Shown here: in pieces, positions 3,034 through 64,000 of the stretch
Numbering within the stretch: position 1 is the stretch's first letter
Layout of the letters: each line of letters begins with the position of its first letter
Origin: Dehalococcoidia bacterium
Lineage (GTDB): Bacteria > Chloroflexota > Dehalococcoidia > Bin125
Length of the DNA: 64,000 nucleotides
Assembly (NCBI GenBank): GCA_965203165.1
Contig: OZ241849.1
Location: 2,093,786 to 2,157,785, forward strand
Direction: 5' to 3'
Program-made: the position numbers and the translations under genes
The notes under the pieces: model-generated
What the model was told of the DNA's origin: nothing
The model's input: the letters and a program-made list of their open reading frames with translations, nothing else
Database searches by the model: none

Positions 3034-3087
3034 CGTCAGCTAGCCTACACTGTGCGTCTAACGACGAGACTGCGAGGGGAGGCGCAG

Positions 3088-4137
3088 GTGAACGTGAGCG
3101 GAGTGCTGGTCAGCATTGCCGGGCATTGGCGCGGACTCGCCTTTCTGGCGGTCGTCGCGCTGACCATGTTCGCGGCCTACCTGTGCCGCGTTGATGAGAT
3201 TGTCCGCACCCAGGGCCAGACCGCCGCGCTGCCCCAGATCGACCTGCGGATCGCCATGATCACCCACGGCGGCATCGGCGACCCCTTCTGGGACCAGGTC
3301 GCCGCCGGCGCGCAGGCCGCACAGCGCGAGTTCGGCGTCGAACTCCGCTACGACGGCGACGGCGACATCAACGCCCAGGTGCGGCTGGTCGATAACGCCA
3401 TCGCCTCGGGCTACGACGTCCTGATCGTCTCGCTCGCCGACCCCGACGCCCTGGAAAACTCGGTGCGCGCCGCGGTCGAGGCCGGGCTGATGGTCCTCTC
3501 GATCAACTCCGGCGAAGAGCGCGGCCGCGAATTCGGCGCGACCACCCACTTCGGCCAGCCCGACCAGGTCGCCGGCCTGGCCGCCGGCGAGCGCATGGCC
3601 GCCGCCGGCGTCAGCCGCATGCTCTGCATCATCCACGAGCAGGGCAACATCGGCCTGCTGCACCGCTGCAACGAGGCCGGCCTCTCGATGAACCTGGCCG
3701 GCGGCGAATTCCAGACCATGTTCGTCACCGGCACCTCCAACATCCGCGAGACCACCAACGAAATCGCCTCCGTGCTGCTCGCCAACCCGAGCATCGACGG
3801 CGTGCTCGCGCTCAACTCCGAAATCGCCGAGCTCGCCCAGCGCGCAATCAGCGAGGTCGCCGCCAACTCCGTGCTCGCCACCTTCGACATCTCCTCCGAA
3901 GTGCTGCAAGACATCGAGCGCGGCTCCATGCTCTTCGCGGTCGACCAGCAGGCCTATCTGCAGGGCTTCCTGCCGATCGCCTTCGCCTACGTCGCCAGCG
4001 TGGAAGCGGATCTGGAAACCTCTCAGCTGCTGCGCGCGCTGAAGCGCTGGAGCGCCTCCGGGCGGCTCCTGACCGGACCCGGCTTCGTCGACGCCAGCAA
4101 CGTGCGGCGCTACCCCGAAATCAGAGGCCCGGAATGA
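3088..4137 (+). CDS. sugar ABC transporter substrate-binding protein (PBP type I / CUT2-like), paralog 1
   Basis: Homologous along its whole length to the next two ORFs. N-terminal hydrophobic signal/anchor. Start set at GTG 3088 after GGAGG. The ATG at 2917 would overlap the divergent gene. Confidence 0.75.
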   Translation: MNVSGVLVSIAGHWRGLAFLAVVALTMFAAYLCRVDEIVRTQGQTAALPQIDLRIAMITHGGIGDPFWDQVAAGAQAAQREFGVELRYDGDGDINAQVRLVDNAIASGYDVLIVSLADPDALENSVRAAVEAGLMVLSINSGEERGREFGATTHFGQPDQVAGLAAGERMAAAGVSRMLCIIHEQGNIGLLHRCNEAGLSMNLAGGEFQTMFVTGTSNIRETTNEIASVLLANPSIDGVLALNSEIAELAQRAISEVAANSVLATFDISSEVLQDIERGSMLFAVDQQAYLQGFLPIAFAYVASVEADLETSQLLRALKRWSASGRLLTGPGFVDASNVRRYPEIRGPE

Positions 4138-5180
4138 CGCGCCGCCGCTCCCTGCGTCGTTTGCCGGCCGCGCTGTTCGGCGCGCTGTTGACCGCCGTGC
4201 TGGTCTCCACCGCCTGTGCCGACGCCGCCCTGGAGCGGCTCGGCCTGGCCACCGTGCAACCCCTCTCGATCTCCTTCGTCGTCCACGGCGAGCTTGACGA
4301 CCCCGTCTGGCAGGAGATCCGCGCCGGCGCCGAATCCGCCGGGCAGGCCTTCCACGCCAGCATCTCCTGGCAAGCCTCCGCCGACACCGACGAGCGCGTG
4401 CGCATGGTCGAAGACAGCATCTCCCAGGGCTTCGACGTGATCGTCGTCACCCTCTCGGACCCGCTCGGCATGGAGCGGGTCGTGCGCCAGGCAACCGTCG
4501 AGGGAACGATCGTCTACGTGATCAACGCCGGGGTGCAATACGCGCTCGGCTTCGGCGCCGACGCGTTCTTCGGCATGTCGGAGATCGTCGCCGGTCTGGC
4601 CGCCGGCGAGCGCCTCGCCGTCGCGGGCGCCACCAAACTGCTTTGCGTGCAGCCCGAAGAGAGCAACCAGGGCCTGTTCACCCGCTGCGAGCAAGCCGAA
4701 TTCCGGATCGGCGAGACGGTCCAAATCGTGGTCGATCCGCGGCAAGCCGCCAGCGTTGAGGCGCGCGTCGCCGAAGCACTCGCCGAACATCCCACCATCG
4801 ACGCCGTGATCACCAGCGACGGCTGGCGCCTCGCCGGACCCGCCCGCGCCGCCATCGATCGCGTCCGCGCCGATGGCCGCTCCATCCTCCATGTCGCTTT
4901 CGGCGTCGATGAGCCCGTCCTGCGCAGCATTGATGAGGGCGCAATCCTCTTCGCAGTCGACCAGCAGCCCTGGCTCCAAGGCTACCTGCCCGTCGCCTAC
5001 GCCCAGGTCAAGCGCTTCTCCGCGCGCACCCGCGGCGACGAGGTCGCCCGCGTGCTGCTTCAGTGGGCCGAGGGCGGCGGCATTCTGCTCGGCCCCGGCT
5101 TTGTCGACCAACGCAACGTCCAGCAGGTGCGCGCCTCCGGCGCGGTCGCCGACGGTCCGTGGTGGGTGGACGAACCATGA
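4134..5180 (+). CDS. sugar ABC transporter substrate-binding lipoprotein, paralog 2
   Basis: Signal peptide with lipobox-like VSTAC. Conserved blocks shared with paralogs 1 and 3 (FAVDQQPWLQGYLPVAYA, ILLGPGFVD). ATGA overlap with the upstream gene. Confidence 0.85.
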   Translation: MTRRRSLRRLPAALFGALLTAVLVSTACADAALERLGLATVQPLSISFVVHGELDDPVWQEIRAGAESAGQAFHASISWQASADTDERVRMVEDSISQGFDVIVVTLSDPLGMERVVRQATVEGTIVYVINAGVQYALGFGADAFFGMSEIVAGLAAGERLAVAGATKLLCVQPEESNQGLFTRCEQAEFRIGETVQIVVDPRQAASVEARVAEALAEHPTIDAVITSDGWRLAGPARAAIDRVRADGRSILHVAFGVDEPVLRSIDEGAILFAVDQQPWLQGYLPVAYAQVKRFSARTRGDEVARVLLQWAEGGGILLGPGFVDQRNVQQVRASGAVADGPWWVDEP

Positions 5181-6232
5181 TCCGCACGCTCAACCGCCCG
5201 CCCAAACGCCCACTCGGCCTCTTCCTGGCCATTCTGCTCGGCGCCGCGCTGCTCAGCGCGGCCTGCGCCGAAGCCGCCCTCGAGCGGCTCGGCCTGGCCG
5301 ACGCCAACCCCCTCTCGATCGCCTTCGTCGTCCACGGCACGGAAGAGGATCCCTTCTGGCACGAAGTCCGCGCCGGCGCCGACGCAGCCGGCCAGGCCTT
5401 CGACGTCAGCGTCTCCTGGTCGGCCTCGCCCGACACCGAAGAGCGCGTGCGGCTGGTCAGCGAGGCGATCGATCAGGGCTTCGAGGTGGTCGTCGTCACC
5501 CTCTCCGACCATCTCGGCATGGAGCGGATCGTGCGCGACGCGGTCGTGCAGGGCGTGACAATCTACGTGATCAACGCCGGCGTGCAGCATGCGATCGGCT
5601 TCGGCGCGGCCGCATTCTTCGGCATGGTCGAGACCGTCTCCGGCCTGGCCGCCGGCGAGCGGCTCGCCGCCGCCGGCGTCTCCAAGCTGCTCTGCGTAAT
5701 GCACGAGACCAACAACGAAGCCCTCACCACCCGCTGCGAGCAGGCCGAATTCCGCATCGGCGAGATGATCCGCCTGTTCGTCGACCCCCAGCAGCCCGAC
5801 CAGATCGAGGCGCGGGTCTATGAGGCGCTGCGGCAGGACCCGGAAATCAACGGGCTGATGACGCACGACGGCTGGCTGGTTGCGGAGCCGGCGCAAACCG
5901 CCCTGGACAGAATGACGGCCGAGCAGGGGCGCGCAATGCCCCATGCCGTCTACGGCGTCGACGAACCGACCCTGCGCGCGATTGAGGACGGCCGCGTGCT
6001 CTTTGCGGTCGACCAGCAGCCCTGGCTCCAGGGCTACCTGCCCGTCGCCTACGCCCAGCTGCGCAACTACTCCGATCGGATTCGCGGCGACGAGCTGGCT
6101 AGCGTGCTCGTGCAATGGGCCCAGGGCGGCGGCATCATCCTTGGACCGGGCTTCATCGACGGCAACAACTTGGACGAAGTGCGCGCGTCGGGCGCGGTTG
6201 GAGAGGGGCAATGGTGGCTGACCGAGCAATGA
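5178..6232 (+). CDS. sugar ABC transporter substrate-binding lipoprotein, paralog 3
   Basis: MIRTLNRPPKRPLGLFLAILLGAALLSAACAEA signal/lipobox. About 70% identical to paralog 2 by eye. ATGA overlap. Confidence 0.85.
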
Positions 6233-11380: not shown

Positions 11381-12010
11381 ATGCTGATCACGGTGGAAGG
11401 CGGGGACGGCGCGGGCAAAACCACCCTGGTGCGCGCGCTGGTGCGGCGCTGGGAGGACGCGGGCGCGGCGCTCCAGACAACGCTCGAACCAGGCGGCACG
11501 GAAATCGGGCGGGGCCTGCGCGACCTGGTCCTGCACACCAGCGCGCCGTTGGAACCGTGGGCCGAAACGTTTCTCTTTCTGACCGACCGCAGCGCCGATG
11601 TCTCCCAGATCATCCGCCCGGCGCTGGAGCGCGGACAGATCGTGCTCTGCGACCGCTACGCCGACTCGACCCTGGCCTATCAGGGCTACGGGCGGGGACT
11701 GGATCTTGATCTAATCCGACGGCTGAACGAGGCGGCGACGGGCGGCCTGGAGGCCGACCTCACGCTGCTGCTCGATATCGGCGCAGAGCAGGGAATCGCG
11801 CGCGGGCGCGGCGACGGCGGCGATCGGATCGCCGACGCGGCGCTGGAGTTTCATCGGCAGGTGAACGACGGCTTCCGCAAAATCGCGGCGCAGTCCCCCG
11901 AACGGGTAGTCGTGCTGGACGCGGCCCAGCCTGCGGCGCAGGTGCTCGACCAGGCGCTGGTCGCGGCAGAGCCGCGCCTGCGCGCCGCGGGCCTGCTGCC
12001 GACGGCGTGA
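11381..12010 (+). CDS. tmk: thymidylate kinase
   Basis: MLITVEGGDGAGKTT P-loop and DRY motif (LCDRYADS). The ATG at 11381 is preferred over the upstream ATG at 11357. Confidence 0.9.
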   Translation: MLITVEGGDGAGKTTLVRALVRRWEDAGAALQTTLEPGGTEIGRGLRDLVLHTSAPLEPWAETFLFLTDRSADVSQIIRPALERGQIVLCDRYADSTLAYQGYGRGLDLDLIRRLNEAATGGLEADLTLLLDIGAEQGIARGRGDGGDRIADAALEFHRQVNDGFRKIAAQSPERVVVLDAAQPAAQVLDQALVAAEPRLRAAGLLPTA

Positions 12011-12125
12011 CGATGGAGTCAGCGCGAACCGCGCCATAGACTGAGCCGCCAGGAGGACCAGAAAGCGATTGGCGCACCGAGAGAGGGCGGCGGTGGACGA
12101 TTCCCAGAATTCGGACGGCCAGGTC

Positions 12126-27218: not shown

Positions 27219-28244
27219 ATGACGACAGAACCAGAAGCACCGGCGCCCGCTGCCGAAACGGCTGAAACGGCTGTCGAGCCGCAGCCGACTGAGCAGCCTC
27301 CGGCCGCTGCGGTTCCCGCCGTTGAGCCGGAGCCGGCCGCGCCGGTGCCAGCGCCGCAGCGGGTGACGCCCGGACCCACGACATCCGCCGGGGAGCGTGG
27401 ACCGCAAGTAGTTGAGCGTGCGCGGCGGCGCACGCGGCGGCGGCGCGCGCCGGTCTTTACGCCCCGCGAAGTCGAGAACATCGACTACAAGGACGTCGAC
27501 AAGCTGAAGAAGCTGATCTCCGATCGGGGCAAGATCGAGCCGCGCCGCAAGACGGGGCTCACGGCGAAAGATCAGAAGAAGCTGGCGCGGGAGATCAAGC
27601 GGGCGCGGTACATGGCGCTGCTGCCGTACACAGCGGATCACATGCGGCAGACGAGCCGCTACCGAATTGCGACGCGGGCGGCGGAGCGCGCCGCGCGCTA
27701 CGCAGAGGCGGAACCGCGCCCGGTTGAGGCTGCGCCTGCCGTTGCTGCACCGCCTGCGGACGCGCCCACCGCGGAAGCTGCCGCCGCTGCGCCGCCCGCC
27801 GCCGCTCCCGCGCCTGATGCCGCGCCCGAACCGGCGGCGGCTCCGGCCGAGCCTGTTGCGGAAGCCGCGCCGGCGGTGCCGGAGGCTGCCCCCGCAGCGG
27901 AAGCCGTACCTGCCGTTGCAGCGCCGCCTGCCGCTGCGCCCGAACCGGCGGCGGCTCCGGCCGAGCCTGTTGCGGAAGCCGCGCCGGCGGTGCCGGAGGC
28001 TGCCCCCGCAGCGGAAGCCGTACCTGCCGTTGCAGCGCCGCCTGCCGCTGCGCCCGAACCGGCGGCGGCTCCGGCCGAGCCTGTTGCGGAAGCCGCGCCG
28101 GCGGTGCCGGAGGCTGCCCCCGCAGCGGAAGCCGTACCTGCCGTTGCAGCACCGCCTGCCGCTGCGCCCGAGCTGGCGGCGGCTCCGGCCGAGCCTGTTG
28201 CGGAAGCCGCGCCGGCTGCGCAGCCGGACTCCGATCCGGCATGA
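27219..28244 (+). CDS. rpsR: 30S ribosomal protein S18 with long Pro/Ala-rich N- and C-terminal extensions (341 aa)
   Basis: Canonical S18 core [58 protein letters not shown] at aa 80-137. A single ORF with RBS GAGGAGG. The C-terminal 200 aa are encoded by 114-bp tandem repeats. ATGA overlap with hom. Confidence 0.75.
27822..28240 (+). repeat. tandem repeat, period 114 bp, about 3.7 near-identical copies, inside the rpsR coding region
   Basis: The unit GCGCCCGAACCGGCGGCGGCTCCGGCCGAGCCTGTTGCGGAAGCCGCGCCGGCGGTGCCGGAGGCTGCCCCCGCAGCGGAAGCCGTACCTGCCGTTGCAGCGCCGCCTGCCGCT recurs at 27822, 27936, 28050 and 28164 (partial). Confidence 0.9.
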
Positions 28245-37445: not shown

Positions 37446-39503
37446 ATGGCCTCCGAACAGCCCATTCAGTATGTCCGCAACATCGGCGTGATCGCGCATA
37501 TTGACGCGGGCAAAACGACCGTGACCGAGCGCATCCTCTACTTCACCGGCCGCACCTACAAGATCGGCGAGGTGCACGACGGCACAGCGGTGATGGACTA
37601 CATGGACCAGGAGCGCGAGCGCGGCATCACGATCACCGCCGCGGCGACCAGCGCGGAGTGGAACGATCACCTGATCAACATCATCGACACGCCGGGGCAC
37701 GTCGATTTCACCGTGGAAGTCGAGCGCAGCCTGCGCGTGCTGGACGGCGGCGTGGTCGTGTTCGACGCCGTGGCCGGCGTCGAGCCGCAGTCCGAGACCG
37801 TCTGGCGGCAGGCCGACCGCTACGCCGTGCCCCGAATCTGTTTCGTCAACAAAATGGACCGCATCGGCGCGGACTACTGGCGGACGATGGAGATGATCCG
37901 CGATCGTTTGGGCGCGGTACCCGTGCCGGTGCAGATTCCGATTGGCAGCGAAGACCAATTTGAGGGCGTGATCGACCTGATTCGGATGCGCGCTTGGTTC
38001 TTCAGCGAGGATCGCGACGATCCGCCGCGCGAGGGCGAAATCCCTGAGCGCTGCGTCTCCGACGCCGGGCGCTGGCGCGAGACGATGATCGAGCGGATCG
38101 CGGAGAACGACGAGCAGGTGATGATCTCCTACCTCGAGGGCCACGAGCTGACCGAGGACGAGATTCGCAAGGCGGTGCGGCGCGGCGCGGTGGCCAACCT
38201 CTTCACCCCGGTGCTCTGCGGCAGCGCGCTGAAGAACGTCGGCGTGCAGCGCCTGCTCGATGCGATCGTCGATTACCTGCCCGCGCCCGACGAGGTGCCG
38301 CCGGTGCGCGGCATCAACGCGGACGGCGTGGAGGTCGAGCGGCGCGCCGATTCCGGCGAGCCGCTCACCGCGCTGGCGTTCAAGATTGTCACCGATCCCT
38401 TCGTGGGGCGGATCGCCTATGTGCGGGTCTACTCGGGCACGCTCGAGGCCGGCGCGAGCGTCTACAACTCGACGCGCCAACGGGTCGAGCGGGCCGGCCG
38501 CCTGCTGCGCATGCACGCCGACTCGCGGGAAGACATCAAGCGGGTGACCGCGGGCGACATCGCGGCATTCGTAGGGCCCAAAGAAACGTTTACCGGCGAC
38601 ACGCTCTGCTCGCGCGACGCGCCGCTGCTGCTCGACGAAATCCGCTTCCCCGAACCGGTCGTCTCCGTCGCCATCGAGGCGAAAAGCAAGGACGACCAGG
38701 ATCGCCTGGGCACGGCGCTGCGCAAGCTGGTCGAAGAAGACCCCACATTCCGCGTCGAATTCAACGACGAGACCGGCCAGACGGTGATTTCGGGGATGGG
38801 CGAGTTGCACCTCGAGGTGATCGCGGATCGGCTGCGGCGCGAATTCAACGTGGCCTGCACGGTGGGGCGCCCGCAGGTGGCCTACCGCGAGACGATTCAA
38901 CGCTCGTCCGAGGCGGAAGGGCGCTTTGTGCGGCAGACGGGCGGGCGCGGGCAGTACGGACACGTCGTGCTGCAGATCGAGCCGAACGAGGCCGGCGCGG
39001 GCTTCGAGTTTGAGGACAAGAGCGTAGGCGGCGTGGTGCCGCAGCACTTTGTCCCGTCCGTCAAGCGCGGCGTTGAGCAGGCGATGCGCAACGGCATTGT
39101 GGGCGGCTTCCCCGTGGTTGATGTGAAGGTTGCGCTGGTCGACGGCAGCTACCACCAGGTCGACTCCAACGAGTTGGCGTTCGCTACGGCGGGGGGCATG
39201 GCCTTCCGCGAGGCGATGCGCCGAGCCGAGCCGGTCCAGCTGGAGCCGATGATGCGCGCCGAGCTGGCCACGCCTGACGAGTTTTTCGGCGATGTGCTGG
39301 GCGATGTGAGCGGGCGCCGCGGGCATGTGACGGGCACGGAAATGCGCGGCACCCTGCAGCTGATTCGCGCCCACATTCCGCTTGCGGAATTGTTCGGTTA
39401 CACCACCACGCTGCGTTCGATGACGCAGGGGCGGGCGACGGCGAGCATTGAGTTCGATCACTACGCGGTGATTCCGCAAGGAGTGTTGGCCGCGGCGCGA
39501 TAG
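37446..39503 (+). CDS. fusA: elongation factor G
   Basis: [27 protein letters not shown]. The true ATG at 37446 lies inside the longer track ORF 37128..39503. Confidence 0.97.
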
Positions 39504-39530
39504 CGCCGTGCGCGGAAAGGGAGCGAAGCG

Positions 39531-44178: not shown

Positions 44179-44928
44179 GTGGGCCAGAAAGTACACCCGA
44201 CCAGTTTCCGCATCCCGACCATCTACGGCTGGCGCAGCCAGTGGTACGCCGGCAAGGATTACGCGAAGCTCGTGCAGGAAGACATCGAGCTGCGCAAGTT
44301 CATCAATGGGCGGCTCGATGACGCCTCGATTTCGCGGATCGATATCCAGCGCAGCGCCGGCCAACTGCGGATCACGCTGCACACCGCGAAGCCGGGCATC
44401 GTGATCGGCCGCGGCGGGCAAAATGTGGACGAGCTGCGTCGCGTGCTGGGCGCCCGCACAGGGCGGCGCACCAACGTGGATGTCGAGGAAATCCGCACGC
44501 CGGAGCTCGATGCCAACCTCGTCGCGCGCAGCGTGGCGGAGCAGCTGGAACGGCGAATCGCCTTCCGGCGGGCGATTAAGCAGGCAGTGCAGCGGACGAT
44601 GCAGCGGGGTGCGGAGGGCGCGAAGATCATCATCAGCGGGCGGCTGGGCGGCGCGGAAATGTCGCGCAGCGCCAAAGAGATGGACGGCCGCGTGCCGCTG
44701 CACACGCTGCGCGCGGACATTGACTACGGCTTTGCCGAGGCGCGCACCGTGTTCGGGCGGATCGGCGTCAAAGTCTGGATTTACAAGGGCGAAATCCTGC
44801 CCTTCGAGCCGGAGGACCGCCCGGAGCAGGCGAGCGGTCCGGCCCAGGGCGTGCCCCCCCCGACTGGCTCGCCCTCGACCAGCTCGCCCCTGGCCGAGCG
44901 CGGCGACACCGAGGGAAGGAACGCCTGA
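44179..44928 (+). CDS. rpsC: 30S ribosomal protein S3, with a Pro-rich C-terminal tail
   Basis: GQKVHPT.FRI...W.S.WYA; KH domain. Confidence 0.96.
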
Positions 44929-45347
44929 TGCTCCAGCCTCGCCGCGTCAAATGGCGTAAGCATCACCGCGGCCGCCGCCGCGGCCTCGCCCACTCGGGCA
45001 GCACGATCGCATTCGGCGAGATCGGCCTACAGTCGCTCGACGCGGCATGGGTCGACGGCCGCCAGATTGAGGCGGCGCGGCGCGCGATCACGCATTACGT
45101 GCGGCGCGGTGGCAAGGTCTGGATCCGCGTCTTCCCGGACAAGTCGGTGACGCAGAAGCCGGCCGAGACGCGGATGGGCAAGGGCAAGGGCGCGCCCGAG
45201 AAGTGGGTGGCGGTGGTGAAACCCGGGCGGGTGCTCTTCGAGATCGGCGGAATCGCGGAGGCCGACGCGCGCGAAGCGCTGCGCCGCGCGAGCCACAAGC
45301 TGCCCGTGCGCACGCGCGTGGTGGTGCGCGAGACGGAGGTCGTCTAG
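44928..45347 (+). CDS. rplP: 50S ribosomal protein L16
   Basis: MLQP.R.K.RK.H.GR; ATGA-type overlap with rpsC. Confidence 0.96.
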
Positions 45348-45349
45348 CG

Positions 45350-45823
45350 ATGCCCAACCCACTCGCCGATGAAGCGCGCGCACTCTCCGATCTGGAACTG
45401 GGCGAGGCGATCAACGAGGCCTACCGCGAAATGTTCAATCTCCAGTTCCAGCGCGGCACGCGTCAGCTGCAAAACCCGATGGCGATTCGCGCCGCGCGGC
45501 GGCAGATCGCGCGTCTGCGCACGATCTACCGCGAGCGCCAGCAGGGCGAGGCGGGCGGCGTGCCGCTGGCCCGTCCCACCGCTCCCGCTGTCCCGCCGCC
45601 CAGCGCGGACGCGCCGGCTGAGGAGGACGCTTCGGTGGCCGAGGCCGAGGCCGAGCCGGTGGAGGGCGACGCAGAACCGACCGCAGCGGCCGACCCGTCC
45701 GCGGCCGACACAGCGCTGCCCAGCGAGGACGCGTCGGCTGAGGAGGGCGCTTCGGCGGCCGAGGCTGAGCCGGTGGAGAGCGACGCAGAGCCGACCGCAG
45801 CGCAGACGAGCAAGGACGAGTAA
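45350..45823 (+). CDS. rpmC: 50S ribosomal protein L29 with a ~90-aa acidic Ala/Glu/Asp-rich repeat tail
   Basis: L29 core L..LEL.EA.NEAYREMFNLQFQ in the first 65 aa. The tail carries two ~25-aa repeats (DASVAEAEAEPVEGDAEPTAA / GASAAEAEPVESDAEPTAA). Confidence 0.85.
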   Translation: MPNPLADEARALSDLELGEAINEAYREMFNLQFQRGTRQLQNPMAIRAARRQIARLRTIYRERQQGEAGGVPLARPTAPAVPPPSADAPAEEDASVAEAEAEPVEGDAEPTAAADPSAADTALPSEDASAEEGASAAEAEPVESDAEPTAAQTSKDE

Positions 45824-45826
45824 AGC

Positions 45827-46234
45827 ATGGCCCGCAAACAACGAGTCGGGTTCGCCGCGGCCGATGCCGCCCAGAAAACGGTGGTGGTGCGTGTGGAACG
45901 CACCGTGCGGCACCCGCTATACAAAAAGACCATCCGCCGCCGCAAGCGCTACCTGGCGCACGATGAAGGTAACAACTGCCGCAACGGCGATCGCGTGCTG
46001 ATCGAGGAGTGCCGCCCGCTCTCGCGCCGCAAGACCTGGCGCGTGGTGGAAATCTTGGAACGGCGCGAGCTGGCCGAAATTCAGCCCGGCGAGATCGCCG
46101 CGCCGGCGATTGAGCCGGATGAGCCGCCCGCTCCCCCGGACGAGGCTGAGGCTGCACCGCAGGCCGCCGCGGCCGACGAGACCAAGGCGGGCGACGATGT
46201 GGGCGGCGCGGCGGAGAGCGAGGCGTCGGCATGA
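45827..46234 (+). CDS. rpsQ: 30S ribosomal protein S17, acidic C-terminal tail
   Basis: [24 protein letters not shown]...C..GD.V.I.E.RPLS..K.W.VVEI. Confidence 0.93.
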
Positions 46235-49750: not shown

Positions 49751-50242
49751 ATGCCGCTGCGGTTGCACGACCTGCGCCCCAATCCGGGCGCGCGCAAGAA
49801 GCGTAAGCGTGTCGGACGCGGCAACGCCTCCGGTAAGGGCACCTACTCCGGGCGCGGGTTGAAAGGTCAGCGCTCGCGCGCCGGCCGCGATTACAATGCC
49901 GTCTTCGAAGGCGGCGCAATGTCGATGATGCGCACACTCCCGCGCCGTCGCGGCTTCAAACACCGCGGACGCATCGAGTACCTGGCGATCAACGTGGTCG
50001 AGTTGGCTCGCCGCTTTGCGCCGGGCGACGCGGTCGACGCGGAGGCGTTGGTCGAAGCGCGGCTGCTGCGCCGCGCAAGCCAGCCCTACAAAATTCTCGC
50101 CGGGGGTCCGATCGAACACGCGCTGCACGTGCGCGCCGAGCGCGTCTCCCCCGCCGCGCGCGCGAAAATCGAAGCCGCAGGCGGCTCCGTTGAGGTGATC
50201 AATGCAACGAGCGCAGACAGCAGCGGGCCCGACCAGGCCTAA
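49751..50242 (+). CDS. rplO: 50S ribosomal protein L15
   Basis: L..L.P.PGA.K.RKRVGRG..SG.GKT.GRG.KGQ. Confidence 0.95.
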   Translation: MPLRLHDLRPNPGARKKRKRVGRGNASGKGTYSGRGLKGQRSRAGRDYNAVFEGGAMSMMRTLPRRRGFKHRGRIEYLAINVVELARRFAPGDAVDAEALVEARLLRRASQPYKILAGGPIEHALHVRAERVSPAARAKIEAAGGSVEVINATSADSSGPDQA

Positions 50243-51950
50243 GCTGCTGCAAGCGCTGGTCGACGCCTGGCGCCAGCCGGACGTCCGCCAGAAGCTGGCC
50301 TTCACCCTCGCCATGCTGGTGGTTTTCCGGCTCGTCGCGCACGTGCCGATCCCCGACATCAACAAAACCCAGCTCGAAAACGCGCTCGACAACAACCCCG
50401 TCCTCGGCTTCCTCAACCTCTTCTCCGGCGGCGGGCTGGACAACCTCTCGATCGTCGCGCTCGGCGTCTACCCCTACATCACCGCCTCGATCGTGATGAA
50501 CCTGCTCCAGCCGATGATCCCCAAGCTCCAGGCCCTCGCCCAGGAAGGCGAGACCGGGCGCAACCGCATCCAGCTCTACACCTACTGGCTCGCCATCCCG
50601 ATGTCGATCGTCCAGGGCTACGGCCAGCTGATCCTGCTCGAAAACGCGCGCGCGATCACCGGCATCGGCTTCGGCCCCGATGAGTGGCTGCCCACCGTCT
50701 CCGCGATCATCACCATGACCGCGGGCACCATGTTCCTGATCTGGCTGGGCGAGCTGATCACCGAAAAAGGCGTCGGCAACGGCATCTCCCTGATCATCTT
50801 CGCCGGCATCATCGCCAGCTTCCCGACGCTGTTCAACTCCGTCGGCCAGAGCGACATCGGCTGGTCCGGCATCGCCGTCGTGATCGCCATCGCCATCGCG
50901 CTCGTCGCCCTGATCGTTTTCTTCCAGGAAGCGCAGCGGCGCATCCCCGTCCAATACGCCCGCAGCGTCTTCAGAGGCGGGCGCATGTACCGCCAGAGCG
51001 GGCAGAGCTACATCCCCCTGCGCGTCAACAGCGCCGGCATGATCCCGCTGATCTTCGCCTTCTCGATCATCATCTTCCCCTCCGTGCTGGCCGGCTGGAT
51101 TACCGGCGCGGCGGGCGAAGAGAGCCAGACCCGCGCCGCCGTCGAGGTCCCCTTCGCCTCGCTCGACTCCGACGAGCGGCTCAACACGCTGCTCCCCGAG
51201 CTCGCCGCGAGCGGCCTCTTCCTCGTCAACGAGGCCGAAATCTCCTGGAACGCGGAGGCGGACACGTTCGACGACGTACTCGAGCGGATCAACCAGGCCA
51301 GCGACGCGAACGTGCTGACCCGCGTCGAGACCCGCTCCGACCCGACGGGCGGCGAGCCGCTCACCACCTGGCGAATCGACAACAACGCGATCGGCACCGA
51401 GCCGATCACGCTGCAGGACCTCGAGGGCAACTTCATCGCGCTCACCGACATCCCCACGCACGAAGAAGAGCCCGACAACCCGCTCACGCCCGACTTCGCC
51501 GAAGGCCAGACGCTCGGCGAGCGCCCCGGCTGGGTCGTCCGCGTCGCCGACTGGGTGCAGATCAACTTCTCGCCCGGCCGCCCGCTCTACTGGGCGCTCT
51601 CCTTCGTGCTCGTCGTCGCCTTCACCTTCTTCTACACTTTCGTCACGTTCCAGCAGCAGAATCTGGCGGAGAACCTCCAGAAGCAGGGCGGCTTCATCCC
51701 CGGCATCCGACCCGGACGCCCCACGCAGGACTACATCAACCGCGTCCTCTCCCGAATCACCTGGGCCGGCGCGCTCTTCCTCGGCTTCGTCGCCGTCGTC
51801 CCCTTCCTCGCCACCGAGTTCATCCCCGACAGCACCGCTCTCACCATCTCCAGCACCGGCCTGCTGATCGTCGTGGGCGTCGCGCTCGACACCATGCGCC
51901 AGATCGAGGCCCAACTGCTCATGCGCAACTACGAGGGATTCATCCGATGA
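50202..51950 (+). CDS. secY: preprotein translocase SecY, carrying a ~155-aa insertion in the TM7-TM8 loop (582 aa)
   Basis: Canonical SecY blocks (GGLDNLSIVALGVYPYITASIVMNLL; IPLRVNSAGMIPLIFAFSII; ENLQKQGGFIPGIRPGRPT). Between them, aa ~302-458, sits an acidic soluble segment with no counterpart in standard SecY. Confidence 0.9.
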   Translation: MQRAQTAAGPTRPKLLQALVDAWRQPDVRQKLAFTLAMLVVFRLVAHVPIPDINKTQLENALDNNPVLGFLNLFSGGGLDNLSIVALGVYPYITASIVMNLLQPMIPKLQALAQEGETGRNRIQLYTYWLAIPMSIVQGYGQLILLENARAITGIGFGPDEWLPTVSAIITMTAGTMFLIWLGELITEKGVGNGISLIIFAGIIASFPTLFNSVGQSDIGWSGIAVVIAIAIALVALIVFFQEAQRRIPVQYARSVFRGGRMYRQSGQSYIPLRVNSAGMIPLIFAFSIIIFPSVLAGWITGAAGEESQTRAAVEVPFASLDSDERLNTLLPELAASGLFLVNEAEISWNAEADTFDDVLERINQASDANVLTRVETRSDPTGGEPLTTWRIDNNAIGTEPITLQDLEGNFIALTDIPTHEEEPDNPLTPDFAEGQTLGERPGWVVRVADWVQINFSPGRPLYWALSFVLVVAFTFFYTFVTFQQQNLAENLQKQGGFIPGIRPGRPTQDYINRVLSRITWAGALFLGFVAVVPFLATEFIPDSTALTISSTGLLIVVGVALDTMRQIEAQLLMRNYEGFIR

Positions 51951-56829: not shown

Positions 56830-57635
56830 CCGCAACCCACCGCCTCGCCCTGCTGCTGGAGTACGACGGCTCGGCCTTCGCCGGCTCGCAGTGGCAGCCC
56901 GGCCTGCCCACCGTGCAGGGCGCCCTGCGCGAAGCCGTGGAACAGCTCACCCGCGAGCAACGCCCCGTATCGCTCGCCGGCCGCACCGATGCCGGCGTGC
57001 ACGCCCTCGGGCAGGTCGCCTCCTTCGAGGCCGCGCGCGAGCTGCCGCCACGCCGCTGGCTGCACGGACTCAACCACTTCCTGCCCGCCGCGCTGGCCGT
57101 GCGGGCCGTCCAATGCGTCGCGCCCGATTTCGACCCGCGCCGCTGCGCCCGCGAGCGCGAATACCGCTACGAGCTGCTGGTCGCTCCACAGCGCCGCCCG
57201 CTCGGCGAGCAGCGCGCCTGGCGCGTGCCGCCCCCGTTCTCGCTCGAAGCAGCCCGCGCCGCGCTGCGACTGCTGCACGGCCGGCGCGACTTCGCCGCCT
57301 TCACCACCACCGACCAGCAGCGCCCCACCGTGCGCCGCATGCGCCGTACCGCTATTGACGCTATCGACGCAAGCGGCGAACGCTATACGCTGACCTTCGC
57401 GGCCGACGCCTTCCTCCAACACCAGGTGCGGCGGATGGTCGGCGCGATCGTCGAGACAGCCTGCGGGCGCGCCTCCCTGGATGCGTTCCGCGCAACGCTC
57501 AACGCGGCGATCCCCGGCTCCGCCGCGCCCACCGCCCCCGCGAAGGGTTTGACCTTGGCCGCCGTTCGCTACGATCAAGCGACGCTGCCCGAATGGAAGA
57601 CTGCCCATGTCGACAACTGTCCTCAACCCGCGTGA
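56826..57635 (+). CDS. truA: tRNA pseudouridine(38-40) synthase TruA
   Basis: YDGS.F.G.Q.Q....TVQG.L..A......[11 protein letters not shown]. Overlaps rplQ and rplM. Confidence 0.9.
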
Positions 57636-58038
57636 TGTCGAGCGCCGCTGGCACGTGATCGACGCCGCCGAGCGCCCGCTCGGACGCCTCGCCACACAAA
57701 TCGCCACCCTGCTGCGCGGCAAACACAAGCCCGCCTTCCACCCCTCCCAGGATGTCGGCGACTACGTCGTCGTCGTCAACGCCGCCAAAGTCGCCGTCAC
57801 CGGCCGCAAGCTCGAGCAGAAAATCTACTACCGACACTCCGGACACCTCGGCAGCCTGCGCGAAACCACGCTCAAGGAAATGCTCGAAAAGCGCCCCGAG
57901 CGCGTCATCGAGCACGCCGTGCGCGGCATGCTGCCCAAAAACAAGCTCGGCCGCCGACAATACCGCCACCTGCGCGTCTACCCCGGCGCCGAGCACCCCC
58001 ACGCCGGCCAGACAGCCGACCAGACCGACGCCAACTGA
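57607..58038 (+). CDS. rplM: 50S ribosomal protein L13
   Basis: W.V.DA....LGRLA..IA..L.GKHKP.F.P..D.GD.VVV.NA. Confidence 0.95.
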
Positions 58039-58054
58039 CGAAGCGGAGCAGCCC

Positions 58055-58456
58055 ATGACCACCATGACCGGCCACTATCACTACGGCCTCGGCCGGCGCA
58101 AAAACTCGATCGCTCGCGTCCGGCTCTACGCCGGCGACGGCACAATCATCATCAACGGCAAGCCCGCCGAGGAGTGGTTCTCGCGCGAGGAGCAGCGCCG
58201 CCTGATCAAAGAGCCCCTCTTCCACACTGGCATGCAAAACAGCTTCAGCGCGCAGGTCAAGTGCAGCGGCGGCGGCCGCACCGGCTGGGCCGGCGCCATC
58301 CGCCTCGGCATCGCCCGCGCGCTGCTCGCCTCCGACGAAAACCTCCGCCGCCCCCTCCGCCAGGCCGGCATGCTCACCCGCGACCCCAGAGCCAAGGAGC
58401 GCAAAAAGCCCGGCCTGAAGCGCGCCCGCAAAGCCCCCCAGTACACCAAGCGCTAA
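58055..58456 (+). CDS. rpsI: 30S ribosomal protein S9
   Basis: Y.GLGRRK.S.ARV.L..G.G.I.ING; C-terminal ...KKPGLKRARKAPQYTKR. Confidence 0.96.
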   Translation: MTTMTGHYHYGLGRRKNSIARVRLYAGDGTIIINGKPAEEWFSREEQRRLIKEPLFHTGMQNSFSAQVKCSGGGRTGWAGAIRLGIARALLASDENLRRPLRQAGMLTRDPRAKERKKPGLKRARKAPQYTKR

Positions 58457-58473
58457 CCCGCGCCCACACTTCA

Positions 58474-58660
58474 GAGCTCCGCCACCCCCGCGCATCTACC
58501 CCCCCCCAAGCAGCTCCACCACCCCCGCGCAGCTAGCTCCGCCACCCCCGCTCAAGCAGCTCCGTCCCCCCGCGCGAGCAGCTCCGTCATACCCGCGCGA
58601 GTAGATCCGTCATATCCGCGCAACCAGCTCCGTCATACCCGCGCTTGCCGCGGGTATCTC
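58474..58660. repeat. degenerate tandem repeat array (units ~22-26 nt, AGCTCCGYCAYACCCGCGC...), ending in a perfect 9-bp hairpin, in the convergent rpsI/metK intergenic region
   Basis: Seven successive units, each beginning (C)AGCTCC / ATCCGTCA with a CCCCGCGC or ACCCGCGC core. The terminal ATACCCGCG-CTTGC-CGCGGGTAT lies at 58635-58657. Confidence 0.7.
58635..58657. terminator. candidate bidirectional terminator hairpin (perfect 9-bp stem, 5-nt loop) between convergent rpsI and metK; no U tract
   Basis: ATACCCGCG CTTGC CGCGGGTAT. Confidence 0.4.
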
Positions 58661-58671
58661 GCCGAAACCCC

Positions 58672-59892
58672 CTACAGCCCCACCCCCGCCCGCAACCCCC
58701 CGACCTCCCCCGTCGCCTCCCACGGCAGATCCAGATCCGCGCGCCCGAAGTGGCCGTAGGCCGCCGTCGGCTCGTACATCGGGCGCAGCAAATCCAGCTG
58801 CTCGATGATCGCCAGCGGGCGCAGGTCAAAGTGCTCCCGCACCAACCGCTCCAACTCCGCTTCCGCAATGTGCGCCGTGCCAAACGTCAGCAGCGTCAGC
58901 GAGGTCGGCTCCGGCCGCCCGATCGCATAGGAAAGCTGCACCTCGGCGCGGTCGGCGAGTTCGGCCGCCACGATGTTCTTCGCCACCCAGCGCGCCGCGT
59001 ATGCCCCGGAGCGATCCACCTTTGACGGATCCTTCCCCGAAAACGCCCCGCCGCCGTGCCGCGCGATCCCGCCGTACGTATCCACGATGATCTTCCGCCC
59101 CGTCAGCCCCGCGTCCGCCGCCGGCCCGCCCACGATGAAATTCCCCGCCGGGTTGATGAAATACTGCGTCTCGGCGTCCAGCAACTGCGGCGGAATCGTC
59201 GGCGCGATCACCTCATCCCGCATCGCGTGTTCGATCTGGCTGTGGCTCACAGCGGCCGTGTGCTGGGTGGAGACGACGACGGCCGACACGCGGTGCGGCC
59301 GACCCTCCGCGTATTCCACCGTCACCTGCGCCTTGCCGTCCGGGCGCAGCCAGGGCAGCTCGCCGCTCTTGCGCACCTGCGCCAGCCGCCGCGTCAGGCC
59401 GTCGGCCAGCCACAGCGGCGCGGGCATCAACGTCTCCGTCTCGTCGCACGCGAAGCCGATCATCATTCCCTGATCACCCGCGCCCTGTAGGTCGTAGGGA
59501 TCGTCCGAGTCCCCCGTCCGCGCCGCGCGCCGCAGACCCTCCGCGATATCCGGCGACTGCTGCTTCACCCGCACCACCACCTCGCACGACTCCGCGTCGA
59601 ACCCGATCGCCGGATCCGTGTACCCAATCCGACGCAGCACTCCGCGCGCAATCGCGTCGAAATCAATCTCCGCCTGCGTTGTGATCTCGCCGAAGATCAG
59701 TACGAAATCCGAAGACACCGCGACCTCGCAGGCCACATGCGAATCCCGATCCTGCGCCAGGCAGGCGTCCAGCACTGCGTCCGAAATCTGATCGCAGACC
59801 TTGTCCGGGTGCCCCTCCGTGACCGACTCCGAGGTCCAGCGGTCGCCGGGGAACCCGCTCGCTCCGCGCTGCGTCGTCTGCCGATCGGTCAT
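58672..59892 (-). CDS. metK: S-adenosylmethionine synthetase
   Basis: ESV.EGHPDK.CDQISDA.LDA; GAGDQG.M.G.A.DET..LMP; D.YGG...[10 protein letters not shown]. The ATG at 59892 overlaps the ahcY stop (ATGA). Confidence 0.97.
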
Positions 59893-61151
59893 GTGCCCGC
59901 ATCCCACGAGCGCAGGTAGCGCTCCTGCTCCGGCGTGAGCCGATCCAGCTGCACGCCCATCGCCGCCAGCTTAAGCGCTGCGACCTGTTCATCAATCTCC
60001 GCGGGCACATCCCAGACGCCCGCCGCCGGGCGCGGCTCCGTCCGCGCCAGATACTCAATCGCCAGCGCCTGATTTGCGAAGCTCATATCCATCACGCTGG
60101 CCGGGTGCCCCTCCGCTGCGGAGAGATTGACCAGCCGCCCCTCGGCGAGCAGGAGCAGTTCGCGCCCGTCGGTCGTGCGGTGCGCCGTCACGTAGGGCCG
60201 CGCCTCTCGCCGCTCCTCCGTCATCGCCTCCAGCGCATCCAAATTCACCTCGTGGTTGAAGTGCCCGGCATTCGCCAGAATCGCCCCCGACCGCATCCGC
60301 TCCAGGTGCGGCGCGTCGATCACGTGGATGTCTCCCGTCGTCGTCACAAACACATCCCCCACCCCGGCCGCCGCCTCCATCGTCTCCACCCGAAAGCCGT
60401 CCATCACCGCTTCCAGCGCTCGCAGCGGCGCGACCTCCGTCACGATCACCTGCGCGCCCAGCCCCCGCGCCCGCGACGCCACGCCACGCCCGCACCAGCC
60501 GTAGCCCGCCACTACCACCACCTTCCCCGCCAGCAGCAGATTCGTCGCCCGAATGATCCCGTCCAGCGCGCTCTGCCCCGTCCCGTAGCGATTGTCGAAC
60601 ATGTGCTTCGTCGCCGCGTCGTTCACCGCGATGATCGGATACCGCAGCGCGCCCTCCGCCGCCATCGCCCGCAGCCGAATCACCCCCGTCGTCGTCTCCT
60701 CGCAGCCCCCAATCACATCGCCCAGCAACTCTTGCCGCTCTCCGTGCAGCGTCGAAACCAGATCCGCCCCGTCGTCCACCGTGATCTGCGGAGCCGCATC
60801 CAGCGCCCGCCCGATGTGCTCGTAGTACTGCTCGTTGCTCTCTCCCTTGATCGCGAACACCGCCATCCCCGCGCGCTCCACCAGCGCCGCCGCCACCTCG
60901 TCCTGCGTCGAAAGCGGATTGCTCGCGCACAGCGTCACCTCCGCGCCGCCCTGCTGCAGCGCCAGCGCGAGATTGGCCGTCTCGGAGGTGACGTGCAGGC
61001 AGGCGCCGATGCGCAGACCGTCCAGCGGGCGCTCTCGCGCAAACCGCTCCCCGATCTGCGCGATCACCGGCATCTCCCGCGCCGCCCAGGCAATCCGCTG
61101 CTCGCCGGCGTCGGCCAGCCGACGCTCTCGAATGTCCGACTCCACGCTCAC
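59889..61151 (-). CDS. ahcY: adenosylhomocysteinase
   Basis: NAD-binding [12 protein letters not shown]; CEETTTGV; GHFN.E. Confidence 0.97.
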
Positions 61152-62029
61152 CGCAGCACGATTTCGTTCTCGCCGCCGCCGCGCCGCCGCGCCAGCCAGC
61201 GCCGCGCCCAGGTTTGCATTCCGCCCGCCCGACGGCTCGCGCTTGCTTCCACAATTCGCCCCATCTGCTCGTAGCCCAGCCGCTCGTAGGCGCGCACCGC
61301 CGGCTCGTTCAGCGGATCAACCGACAGTACTACCTCGTCGGTTTCGCGCAGCAACGCCGCTGTCACCGCGCTGGTCGCCGCCTTGCCGTGGCCGAAGCCG
61401 CGCCGACTGGGATGCGTGAACACATTGCCCAGCACCGCGATGCCGTAGCTGTGGCTGATCGAGTGCGTGCCCGCCACCGCGACCAGCCGGCCCTCCTCCA
61501 GCACGCCGTGGTAGCAGCCGTCCTCGATGTGCTGGCGCGCGTAGCGCGTCGGTCTCCCCTCGGAGCTGTAGAGCCGGTTGATGGTCTGCGTATGGCGGCC
61601 GAGCAGTTCCAGCGTTTCGCCCTCCCAGGGGCGGAAGGTCTGCGGCGTGACCAGCATCCGCAGCATTTGGCGGCAAGACGGCAGCGTGTGCGCGGTCTCC
61701 AGCGCGGGGACGTGCCGCGGCTCGCAGATCGCAAACGTTCGCGGCGGTCCGGGGTGCAGGCTGAGAATCTGCGCCGCCCCTTCGGGCGGGCCCAGCAGCG
61801 TCGTCGCCTCGCCCAGCCCGGCGTGCGAGTGGCAGACAATCGCCTCCGCGCCCCCCACGCGGCACGACCACCACTCCGAACGCTCCCACGCATCCCCCTC
61901 CAGCTGCGCCAGCGCATAGGCCGCGATGTAGCGCTGCGGATACAGCTGCGCGGCCAACTCCTGCGGATTATGCCGCCGCACAATCGCAATCCGCTCCCGC
62001 GCCTGCCCCAGCCGCAGCGACAACGCCAT
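61148..62029 (-). CDS. GNAT-family N-acetyltransferase (C-terminal GNAT fold; N-terminal ~150 aa of unknown function)
   Basis: C-terminal Q/R-x-x-G-x-G/A motif (RRGFGHGKA) and ...AYERLGY. Overlapping stop/start with both neighbours. Confidence 0.7.
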
Positions 62030-62944
62030 TTACGCGCCCCGCTCTTCCGCAGTGACCGTTGCCAGACGCTCTCGCACCCCCGCCTCCGTCGCGCGCAGCA
62101 GCCCCTCAATGCCGAACGCCTCGATCGCGAACGAGGCCACCGCGCAGCCCCAGCGCGCCGCCTCGACCAGATCCGCGCCGCCCGCCATCGCGCTCAGCAG
62201 CGCCGCGGTAAACGAATCGCCCGCCCCGGTCGGGTCCACCGCATTGACGTTGGGCACGGCGGAAACGCGCACGCTGCGCTCGGGCTCAAAAATGTCCACG
62301 CCGCGCGAGCCCTGCTTGATCAGGATCGTCTGCGGCCCCAACTGCATCAGCCGCTCTGCCGCCGCGGCCGGCAGCGCCGCGTCCTCCTCCGAGCCCGCCC
62401 AGCCGATCAGCAGCGCCGCCTCATGCGCGTTGATCGAAATCAGCTGCGACCGCCGCACAATCCCCATCAGCCCCTCCCGATGCGTTTCGATCTCCCGCTC
62501 GATCGTGTCCACCGCGATCAGGCGCGGATTGCGCAGACGCGCCAGCGCCCGCTCATTCTGCTGCGGATTGCCCGCCGTCAGAAACAGATACGGCGCATCG
62601 AGCAGCCCCGGGTGGAGCTCCACGATCTGCGACTCGTAGACGCCCGGCTCGGTGTAGAGCGTCTCGCGCCGATCGCCGCTGGAGTCGTAGCGGCAGGCCC
62701 AGCGAAAGGTGCGGCCCGGCGCGCGCTCGATGCCGTTGAGCGCAATGCCCGCCTCGCGCAGCGGCGCGAGCAGGGCGCAATCGAAATCATCCCCCACCAT
62801 CGAGACGGGCGCCGCCAGCGCCGCAAACCGCGCGCCCAGCGCCGCGTACACGCAGGAGCCGCCCAGCAGATCCTCGACGCCGCCCGCCGCGCTGTGAATC
62901 TCGTCGTAGGCCACCGCGCCCACGATCACCAGATCGACGCTCAC
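62030..62944 (-). CDS. PfkB-family carbohydrate/nucleoside kinase (adenosine-kinase-like by context)
   Basis: N-terminal GG motif and the C-terminal DPTGAGDSF anion hole of the ribokinase/PfkB family. Confidence 0.8.
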   Translation of the reverse strand: MSVDLVIVGAVAYDEIHSAAGGVEDLLGGSCVYAALGARFAALAAPVSMVGDDFDCALLAPLREAGIALNGIERAPGRTFRWACRYDSSGDRRETLYTEPGVYESQIVELHPGLLDAPYLFLTAGNPQQNERALARLRNPRLIAVDTIEREIETHREGLMGIVRRSQLISINAHEAALLIGWAGSEEDAALPAAAAERLMQLGPQTILIKQGSRGVDIFEPERSVRVSAVPNVNAVDPTGAGDSFTAALLSAMAGGADLVEAARWGCAVASFAIEAFGIEGLLRATEAGVRERLATVTAEERGA

Positions 62945-63812
62945 GGCAGATACCCCTCAAGCAGCAGCGCGTAGCGCTCGCGCGCCTCCGCCGGAATCCG
63001 CGCCGGATCCGTCATGATCGCCCCCCGCAGCGCGCCCGCCGCCGTCGAACTCCAATCCGCCGGCAGCCCCCGCGCGACCTCCCGCACAATCGCCTGCGCC
63101 GACGCCACATTCTCCTGCACCACCGCCGCCACCGCTTCCGCCGTCACATCTTCCCCCCCTCCCGCCACACGTCGTAATCCGTCGCCGTCGCCAGCATCGC
63201 GTAGGCGATCTCCGCCTCCCGCGCCAGTTTCGCCTCGGGGATCGCCGTCATCCCGATGATCGCCGCGCCCCACGACCGATGCAGCGCCGACTCCGCCCGC
63301 GTGCTGAACGCCGGCCCCTCCATGCAGACATACGCCCCGCCGCGGTGCGCCCGCTTGTCCAACGCCTCCGCCGCATCGCCCAACCGCTCGCTCAAATCCG
63401 CGCAGAACGGATCCGCAAACCCCACATGCGCCGCAATCCCGCCCTCGAAGAACGAGCGCACCCGGTCGCCCTTCGTCCGGTCGATGATCTGATCCGGAAT
63501 CACCATGTCGCCCCGCGCGATCTCCTCGCGCAGCGAGCCCACTGCCGACACCGCGATGATCCCCTGCACGCCCAACGCTTTGAGCGCCCAGATATTCGCC
63601 CGCACCGGAATCTCGTGCGGCAGCAGCACATGCCCCCGCCCGTGCCGCGGCAGAAACGCGACCCGCCGCCCTTCAAGCGAACCAATCGCCAGCTCGTCGC
63701 TCGCCGCGCCGAACGGCGTCTCCGGCGTCCACGTTTCCAGCGACTCCAGGCCGGGCATCCGGTAGAAACCCGAGCCGCCGATCACCGCCAGAGACGCGCG
63801 TGGTTGAGCCAT
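62941..63812 (-). pseudogene. mtnP: S-methyl-5'-thioadenosine phosphorylase (MTAP), split into two reading frames at a C7/G7 homopolymer
   Basis: ORF 63144..63812(-) carries the N-terminal 222 aa (IGGSGFY, Phosphorylase-I fold, ...ATDYDVWREGGKM*). ORF 62941..63273(-), in another frame, continues ...GGEDVTAEAVAAVVQENV... One extra G in the G7 run at 63153-63159 would splice them into one ~290-aa MTAP. Confidence 0.7.
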
Positions 63813-63815
63813 TGG

Positions 63816-64000
63816 TCAGAACCGAACCAGCGCATCGAACGGCAGGCCACGCAGCCGCTCGCGTCCGTTGAGCTCAACCAGCTCGATCAGCACCACGATG
63901 CTCATCACTTCCGCCCCCGCGTCGCTCAGCAGGCCGGCCGCCGCCTCCAGCGTCCCGCCCGTCGCCAGCAGATCGTCCACCAGCGCCACCCGCTGCCCGG
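63816..64000 (-). CDS. apt: adenine phosphoribosyltransferase (C-terminal part; the N-terminus is outside the window)
   Basis: The reverse strand reads ...[29 protein letters not shown], the PRPP-binding motif of APRT. Stop at 63816-63818. Confidence 0.75.

Follow-up and report, generated by a model that had tools for sequence, protein, structure and literature searches.

A private one-base deletion in an MTA phosphorylase gene: assembly error or very recent knockout rather than a regulatory device

Is the MTA phosphorylase (MTAP) gene mtnP at this locus misread, newly broken or deliberately recoded? We addressed this question in a 64-kb window (the whole stretch of DNA analyzed here), in which mtnP has no single uninterrupted open reading frame (ORF). 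An initial annotation had placed a frameshift at a C7 tract within 63140-63170, with 222 N-terminal amino acids followed by a stop and the C-terminus in the minus-strand ORF 62941..63273; the tract does lie there, at 63153-63159, and the ORF list agrees with the division into two parts. Among the explanations offered at that time, a sequencing error or a genuine mutation together very probably cover the truth, whereas a slippage-prone or phase-variable tract is strongly argued against by its presence in 0 of 82 related loci, a weak heptamer and the lack of a significant downstream structure. The sequence comparisons below point to a private, non-programmed loss of one base in mtnP; this would be an artefact of assembly or a knockout of very recent origin, with no regulatory role.

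The interrupted gene and its cluster

At the break, the minus strand of the window has the sequence ACG GAT TAC GAC GTG TGG CGG GAG GGG GGG AAG ATG TGA, and translation across the G7 run gives ...TDYDVWREGGKM followed by a stop. The upstream ORF of 222 amino acids ends in ...ATDYDVWREGGKM before the premature TGA at 63144-63146; its residues 1-219 are authentic MTAP, including the catalytic TDYD motif, and its terminal residues G-K-M are an out-of-frame reading. The remaining tail of about 68-70 residues lies in the -1 frame, in which the minus-strand ORF 62941..63273 contains ...GGEDVTAEAVAAVVQENVASAQAIVREVARGLP... and the coding sequence continues as ...EDVTAEAVAAVVQENVASAQAIVREVARGLP... to EGYLP and a stop, ending at 62941.

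With one base added, the restored protein has 290 amino acids and matches family model NF005657 over positions 3-290 of 291, whereas the 222-amino-acid ORF as it stands matches positions 3-218 of 291 only; the 70-residue tail alone matches positions 222-290 (E=3e-10). Against TIGR01694, with an equivalog cut-off of 274.85, both the restored protein (310 bits) and the 222-amino-acid fragment (289.9 bits) score above the cut-off. Residues 5-285 of the restored protein align with residues 13-296 of PDB 4glf (E=2e-74) without a gap at the junction; the aligned structures 1v4n and 9vs8 show 2-residue gaps at the break site, between the TDYDVW segment and the C-terminal helix. By family models, and with the TDYD motif present, the mtnP product is predicted to be an ordinary MtnP/MTAP. 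The restored protein matches the equivalog models of this family (TIGR01694 and NF005657; Pfam PF01048; solved relatives 4glf RsfP, 1v4n, 1wta and human 1cb0) end to end and is 98% identical to full-length metagenomic proteins; unlike the family members, the ORF in the window is interrupted after codon 219 through the deletion of 1 nt.

The gene is the second in a tightly packed cluster of SAM-cycle and salvage genes, apt, mtnP, pfkB, GNAT, ahcY and metK (Table 1), whose identities as initially annotated were borne out by profile matches. The cluster had also been described as coupled by overlapping stop and start codons, which applies to three of the five junctions: mtnP/pfkB (GTGA, in which the TGA of the mtnP 3' part overlaps the GTG start of pfkB), GNAT/ahcY (GTGA) and ahcY/metK (ATGA). 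At the other two, apt and mtnP are separated by a 3-nt spacer, and pfkB and GNAT abut (TAA ATG).

Table 1. Features at and around the interrupted mtnP gene, with the basis of each assignment
Feature	Position in window	Strand	Basis
apt (adenine phosphoribosyltransferase), 3' end, cut by window edge	63816..64000	-	PF00156
mtnP (MTA phosphorylase) 5' part, 222 codons + premature TGA	63144..63812	-	ORF list, NCBIfam
G7 run (C7 on + strand), lesion marker	63153-63159	-	Window read; pairwise alignments to L001/L081/L082; codon table of 82 loci
GTGA overlap: premature TGA / in-frame GTG of 3' part, GGAGG 9 nt upstream	63141..63146	-	Sequence read
mtnP 3' part, -1 frame, E-D-V-T-A-E-A-V...EGYLP and stop, C-terminal 70 residues	62941..63152	-	NF005657 match
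PfkB-family kinase	62030..62944	-	PF00294
GNAT acetyltransferase-domain protein	61148..62029	-	PF00583
ahcY (S-adenosylhomocysteine hydrolase)	59889..61151	-	PF05221 + PF00670
metK (SAM synthetase)	58672..59892	-	PF00438, PF02772, PF02773

The break site in related genes

Relative to every relative read, the window lacks one base at this site; the deletion creates the G7 run, and the gene is otherwise perfectly preserved. At the protein level, a homologue search covered 5.8 billion proteins. Among the matches listed, all 120 homologues were full length (290-302 amino acids) with the C-terminal part present, which excludes the suggestion that MTAP of this lineage naturally ends at REGGKM. The closest matches were 93-98% identical to the restored MTAP, and the close homologues retrieved, to 85% identity, all read DVWRE(G/D)EEDV(T/S)A.

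At the DNA level, we compared 82 loci, of which 80 came from a scan of species-representative genomes and two were metagenome scaffolds found by an exact-product look-up of the best protein. The closest relatives were a 3.4-Mb Dehalococcoidia MAG chromosome (L001), 97.0% identical over 5.3 kb with two gaps only, and the two scaffolds (L081 and L082), 96-97% identical to the window over the operon. All three read GAG GGG GAG GAG GAT (REGEEDV) where the window reads GAG GGG G-G GAA GAT; their intact state is GGGGGAGG, and the window is one A short. The most parsimonious account of the lesion is that codon 219 (GAG) has lost its A and that the codon after it has changed synonymously from GAG to GAA. 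Since loss of an A from GGGGGAGG fuses G5 and G2 into G7, the tract is a product of the deletion. The initial annotation had proposed an extra G (G8, giving REGGEDV) as the repair; such a repair is possible, but putting back the A is the more parsimonious choice and yields the very REGEEDV of all close relatives. It had also proposed to check the length of the C tract in relatives, and there the tract was absent from 82 of 82 loci rather than variable in length.

In the codon table, none of the 82 related loci had a G7, a G8 or a frameshift at the site, and all were in frame. More distant relatives read GGT GAG or TCG GAG there, with no homopolymer, and the closest ones (L001, L003-L006, L008, L081 and L082) keep the following GAT GTG ACG. 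As all of these loci are in frame and the homologues listed are all full length, mtnP is consistently selected for in the clade. After the break, the restored frame differs from that of L001 by two synonymous and no non-synonymous codon differences, and from those of L081 and L082 by 5-7 synonymous and one non-synonymous. By this measure, the 3' part is free of decay; purifying selection kept the frame until very recently or does so still. The mutated allele itself had no match in an exact search of JGI metagenome contigs, and the best protein matches in that source reached no more than 70% identity. Exact look-ups of the 222-amino-acid product, the neighboring PfkB kinase and the EF-Tu of the window gave no entry in the assembly collection.

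A second private 1-nt indel lies at 62030-62035, where the window has TAAATG, with an extra A, and L001, L081 and L082 have TAATG. Both the pfkB and GNAT ORFs are unaffected by it, and the relatives have a one-base overlap there. Calls for L081 and L082 had hinted at further frameshifts in the operon (an absent pfkB call and a short GNAT call), which were ruled out as the effect of 100-N scaffold gaps inside the operon, at 5388-5487 in L081 and 2130-2229 in L082.

The close match to L001 is confined in extent: the operon (58672-63812) is 97.1% identical to it, but in the adjoining rpsI-rplM-truA stretch (57057-58459) identity to L001 drops to 83.7%, and L002, at 86.6%, is slightly closer. Such a drop points to a recombination breakpoint between the two, in the convergent intergenic region at 58460-58670; the operon could belong to a recombined segment. 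Because identity falls so sharply beside the operon, the window and L001 should not be assumed to represent the same species. A C9 run (58499-58507) is located within the same intergenic region, at the mosaic boundary.

Consensus error or very recent mutation

We mapped reading frames across the 64-kb window using a GC3-based six-frame Viterbi model, joined translated segments across same-strand frame junctions and scanned them for Pfam domains. The positive control was detected, in that the PNP_UDP_1 domain runs across the MTAP junction (break at 212/213, domain at residues 2-236), and among genes with a Pfam domain that the map labels as coding, no other domain in the 64 kb spans a frame junction. 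The window contains 20 homopolymers of at least 6 nt, and only the mtnP G7 stands at a reading-frame break. Together these results make the mtnP break more than a chance finding. The MTAP lesion is isolated, and the consensus is generally sound, with about 60 genes free of any other frame-breaking indel. Oddities of the frame map at the C-terminus of EF-G (39365-39529), the C-terminus of Tmk (11897-12063) and the N-terminus of Usp (2078-2200) proved to be intact ORFs and were rejected as model noise.

Other features of the window were recorded along the way. Its longest coding homopolymer is a plus-strand C8 run (44854-44861) in the ribosomal protein S3 gene, the frame of which is undisturbed. 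The ribosomal protein S18 ORF (27219-28244, plus strand) encodes 341 amino acids with an Ala/Pro/Glu-rich N-terminal extension, and in its C-terminal tail 3.6 near-perfect (97%) copies of a 114-nt (38-amino-acid) tandem repeat occupy 27811-28216. The L29 and S17 genes at 45345-46223 carry long acidic Ala/Glu/Pro-rich extensions, and SecY (50242-51945), of about 567 amino acids, contains a large insertion that divides its Pfam match into two stretches. Finally, three tandem paralogous genes for periplasmic sugar-binding proteins (Peripla_BP_4) lie at 3038-6228 on the plus strand, upstream of an ABC permease and ATPase.

We somewhat favor a consensus error, in which one base was lost while the consensus was built across a G-rich purine stretch. 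In that case, the organism would have an intact MTA phosphorylase gene of 290 codons with ...WREGEEDV... at this point, or with REGGEDV if the true history was an A-to-G change and an under-called G8. L001, L081 and L082 are independent assemblies that all read GGGGGAGG. Over the shared operon stretch, each of them is separated from the window by two 1-nt indels, the same two in every case, and by no others. The gene is kept in frame at 82 of 82 loci across the clade, its 3' part shows no decay, and the mutated allele lacks a match in the JGI metagenome contigs. The lesion also falls within a low-complexity G/A stretch, a context in which long-read consensus indels concentrate, and the records of the relatives suggest long-read MAG projects. 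The inferred part of this explanation is that sequencing or assembly, and not a change in the DNA, accounts for the missing base. It deserves only a slight preference, for the window is otherwise clean, so that the assembly is not generally indel-prone, and the classic homopolymer-length miscall does not take the form of a dropped non-homopolymer base flanked by two G runs. In addition, a small percentage of genuine pseudogenes is typical of bacterial genomes, so a single true frameshift among 60 genes would not stand out.

A genuine, very recent inactivating deletion is a serious contender, although we consider it the less probable of the two. MTAP would then be cut after residue 219 and lose its C-terminal helix, and the gene would be a newly formed pseudogene, or else the MAG consensus would have caught a null allele that is still segregating. 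The accuracy of the consensus elsewhere, with this as the sole frameshift in 64 kb, fits such a mutation, as does the fact that the event is not a simple change of homopolymer length. The second private indel, at the selectively neutral pfkB/GNAT junction, looks like natural variation, and the absence of decay is compatible with a very young lesion. Conversely, all 82 relatives have an intact copy, and the gene stands second in a packed cluster, which suggests a cost to losing it; further lesions are absent from it; and the allele was not found in the other data sets searched.

Consensus error and null mutation jointly are very probable. In either case, the lesion belongs to a known, everyday class and is nothing new: like other frameshift pseudogenes and assembly indels, it consists of one private 1-nt indel with a premature stop three codons on and intact relatives, and nothing sets it apart from the genes that annotation pipelines label as frameshifted.

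Functional readings of the G7 tract

The readings in which the broken gene still serves a function are very unlikely, even taken together. Were the G7 real, some active MTAP might still be made from an adventitiously rescued frameshift, either by low-level -1 slippage or as a two-piece enzyme after re-initiation at the GTGA; we regard this as a slim chance. A tract that is read through would yield a product of about 31 kDa with a peptide spanning ...WREGGEDVTAEAV..., compared with a truncated form of about 24 kDa.

It is more doubtful still that the G7 is a recoding or contingency device, that is, a site of -1 ribosomal frameshifting, transcriptional slippage or phase variation that tunes MTAP. 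In the zero-frame register (GAG GGG GGG A), the run has the form of an X_XXZ_ZZN heptamer (G_GGG_GGG), at which a -1 shift would produce a full-length ...REGGEDV... protein. The mtnP tract therefore has features in common with dnaX, the -1 sites of the IS3/IS911 family and poly-G contingency loci, namely a run of seven G in X_XXZ_ZZN register at which a -1 shift restores the protein. However, unlike programmed -1 sites, it is unconserved, without a stimulator and a poor heptamer: the tract occurs in 0 of the 82 relatives, including the three at 96-97% operon identity, and was made by the deletion. In a systematic E. coli study of X_XXZ_ZZN heptamers (PMC4066793), heptamers of the class G_GG.G_GG.N ranked with the least efficient at -1 shifting; in the absence of a stimulator, G_GG.G_GG.U reached 0.018%, and the motifs above 0.1% included no member of the class. 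Stimulation of the SD type needs a spacing of 6-17 nt (PMC4066793), and the upstream GGAG directly adjoins the motif, too close for it. Folding of the 103 nt downstream gives -39.4 kcal/mol, which is not significantly different from shuffled sequences (-36.1 +/- 2.5 kcal/mol; z = -1.34; 17 of 200 shuffles at least as stable). Phase variation needs a tract that exists and varies among strains, and the relatives have no tract, in contrast to poly-G contingency loci, where it is variable in length. Both programmed frameshifting and phase variation are strongly argued against.

Equally implausible is a functional split gene, in which the 222-amino-acid N-fragment and a C-fragment of about 67 amino acids, made by coupled re-initiation at the GTG, would assemble into an active enzyme: the accidental GTGA overlap and its SD-like motif could in principle allow re-initiation of the C-fragment, and the break is placed where solved structures vary in length, after the TDYDVW segment and before the C-terminal helix, but the GTG (Val of D-V-T) and the purine-rich stretch (E-G-E-E) are ancestral coding bases rather than evolved signals, no relative is split, and we know of no evidence that MTAP tolerates fragmentation.

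The apparent slippery homopolymer is thus a by-product of the deletion, with no pre-existing tract, and this locus should not be counted as a candidate for recoding or phase variation. Beyond annotation hygiene, the importance of the lesion is slight. A real G7 would mean that the strain has only just lost its MTA phosphorylase, which would make for a small metabolic difference at strain level. In the case of an error, mtnP should be annotated as intact, and the genome would keep the full route of MTA salvage and adenine recycling beside its SAM-cycle genes.
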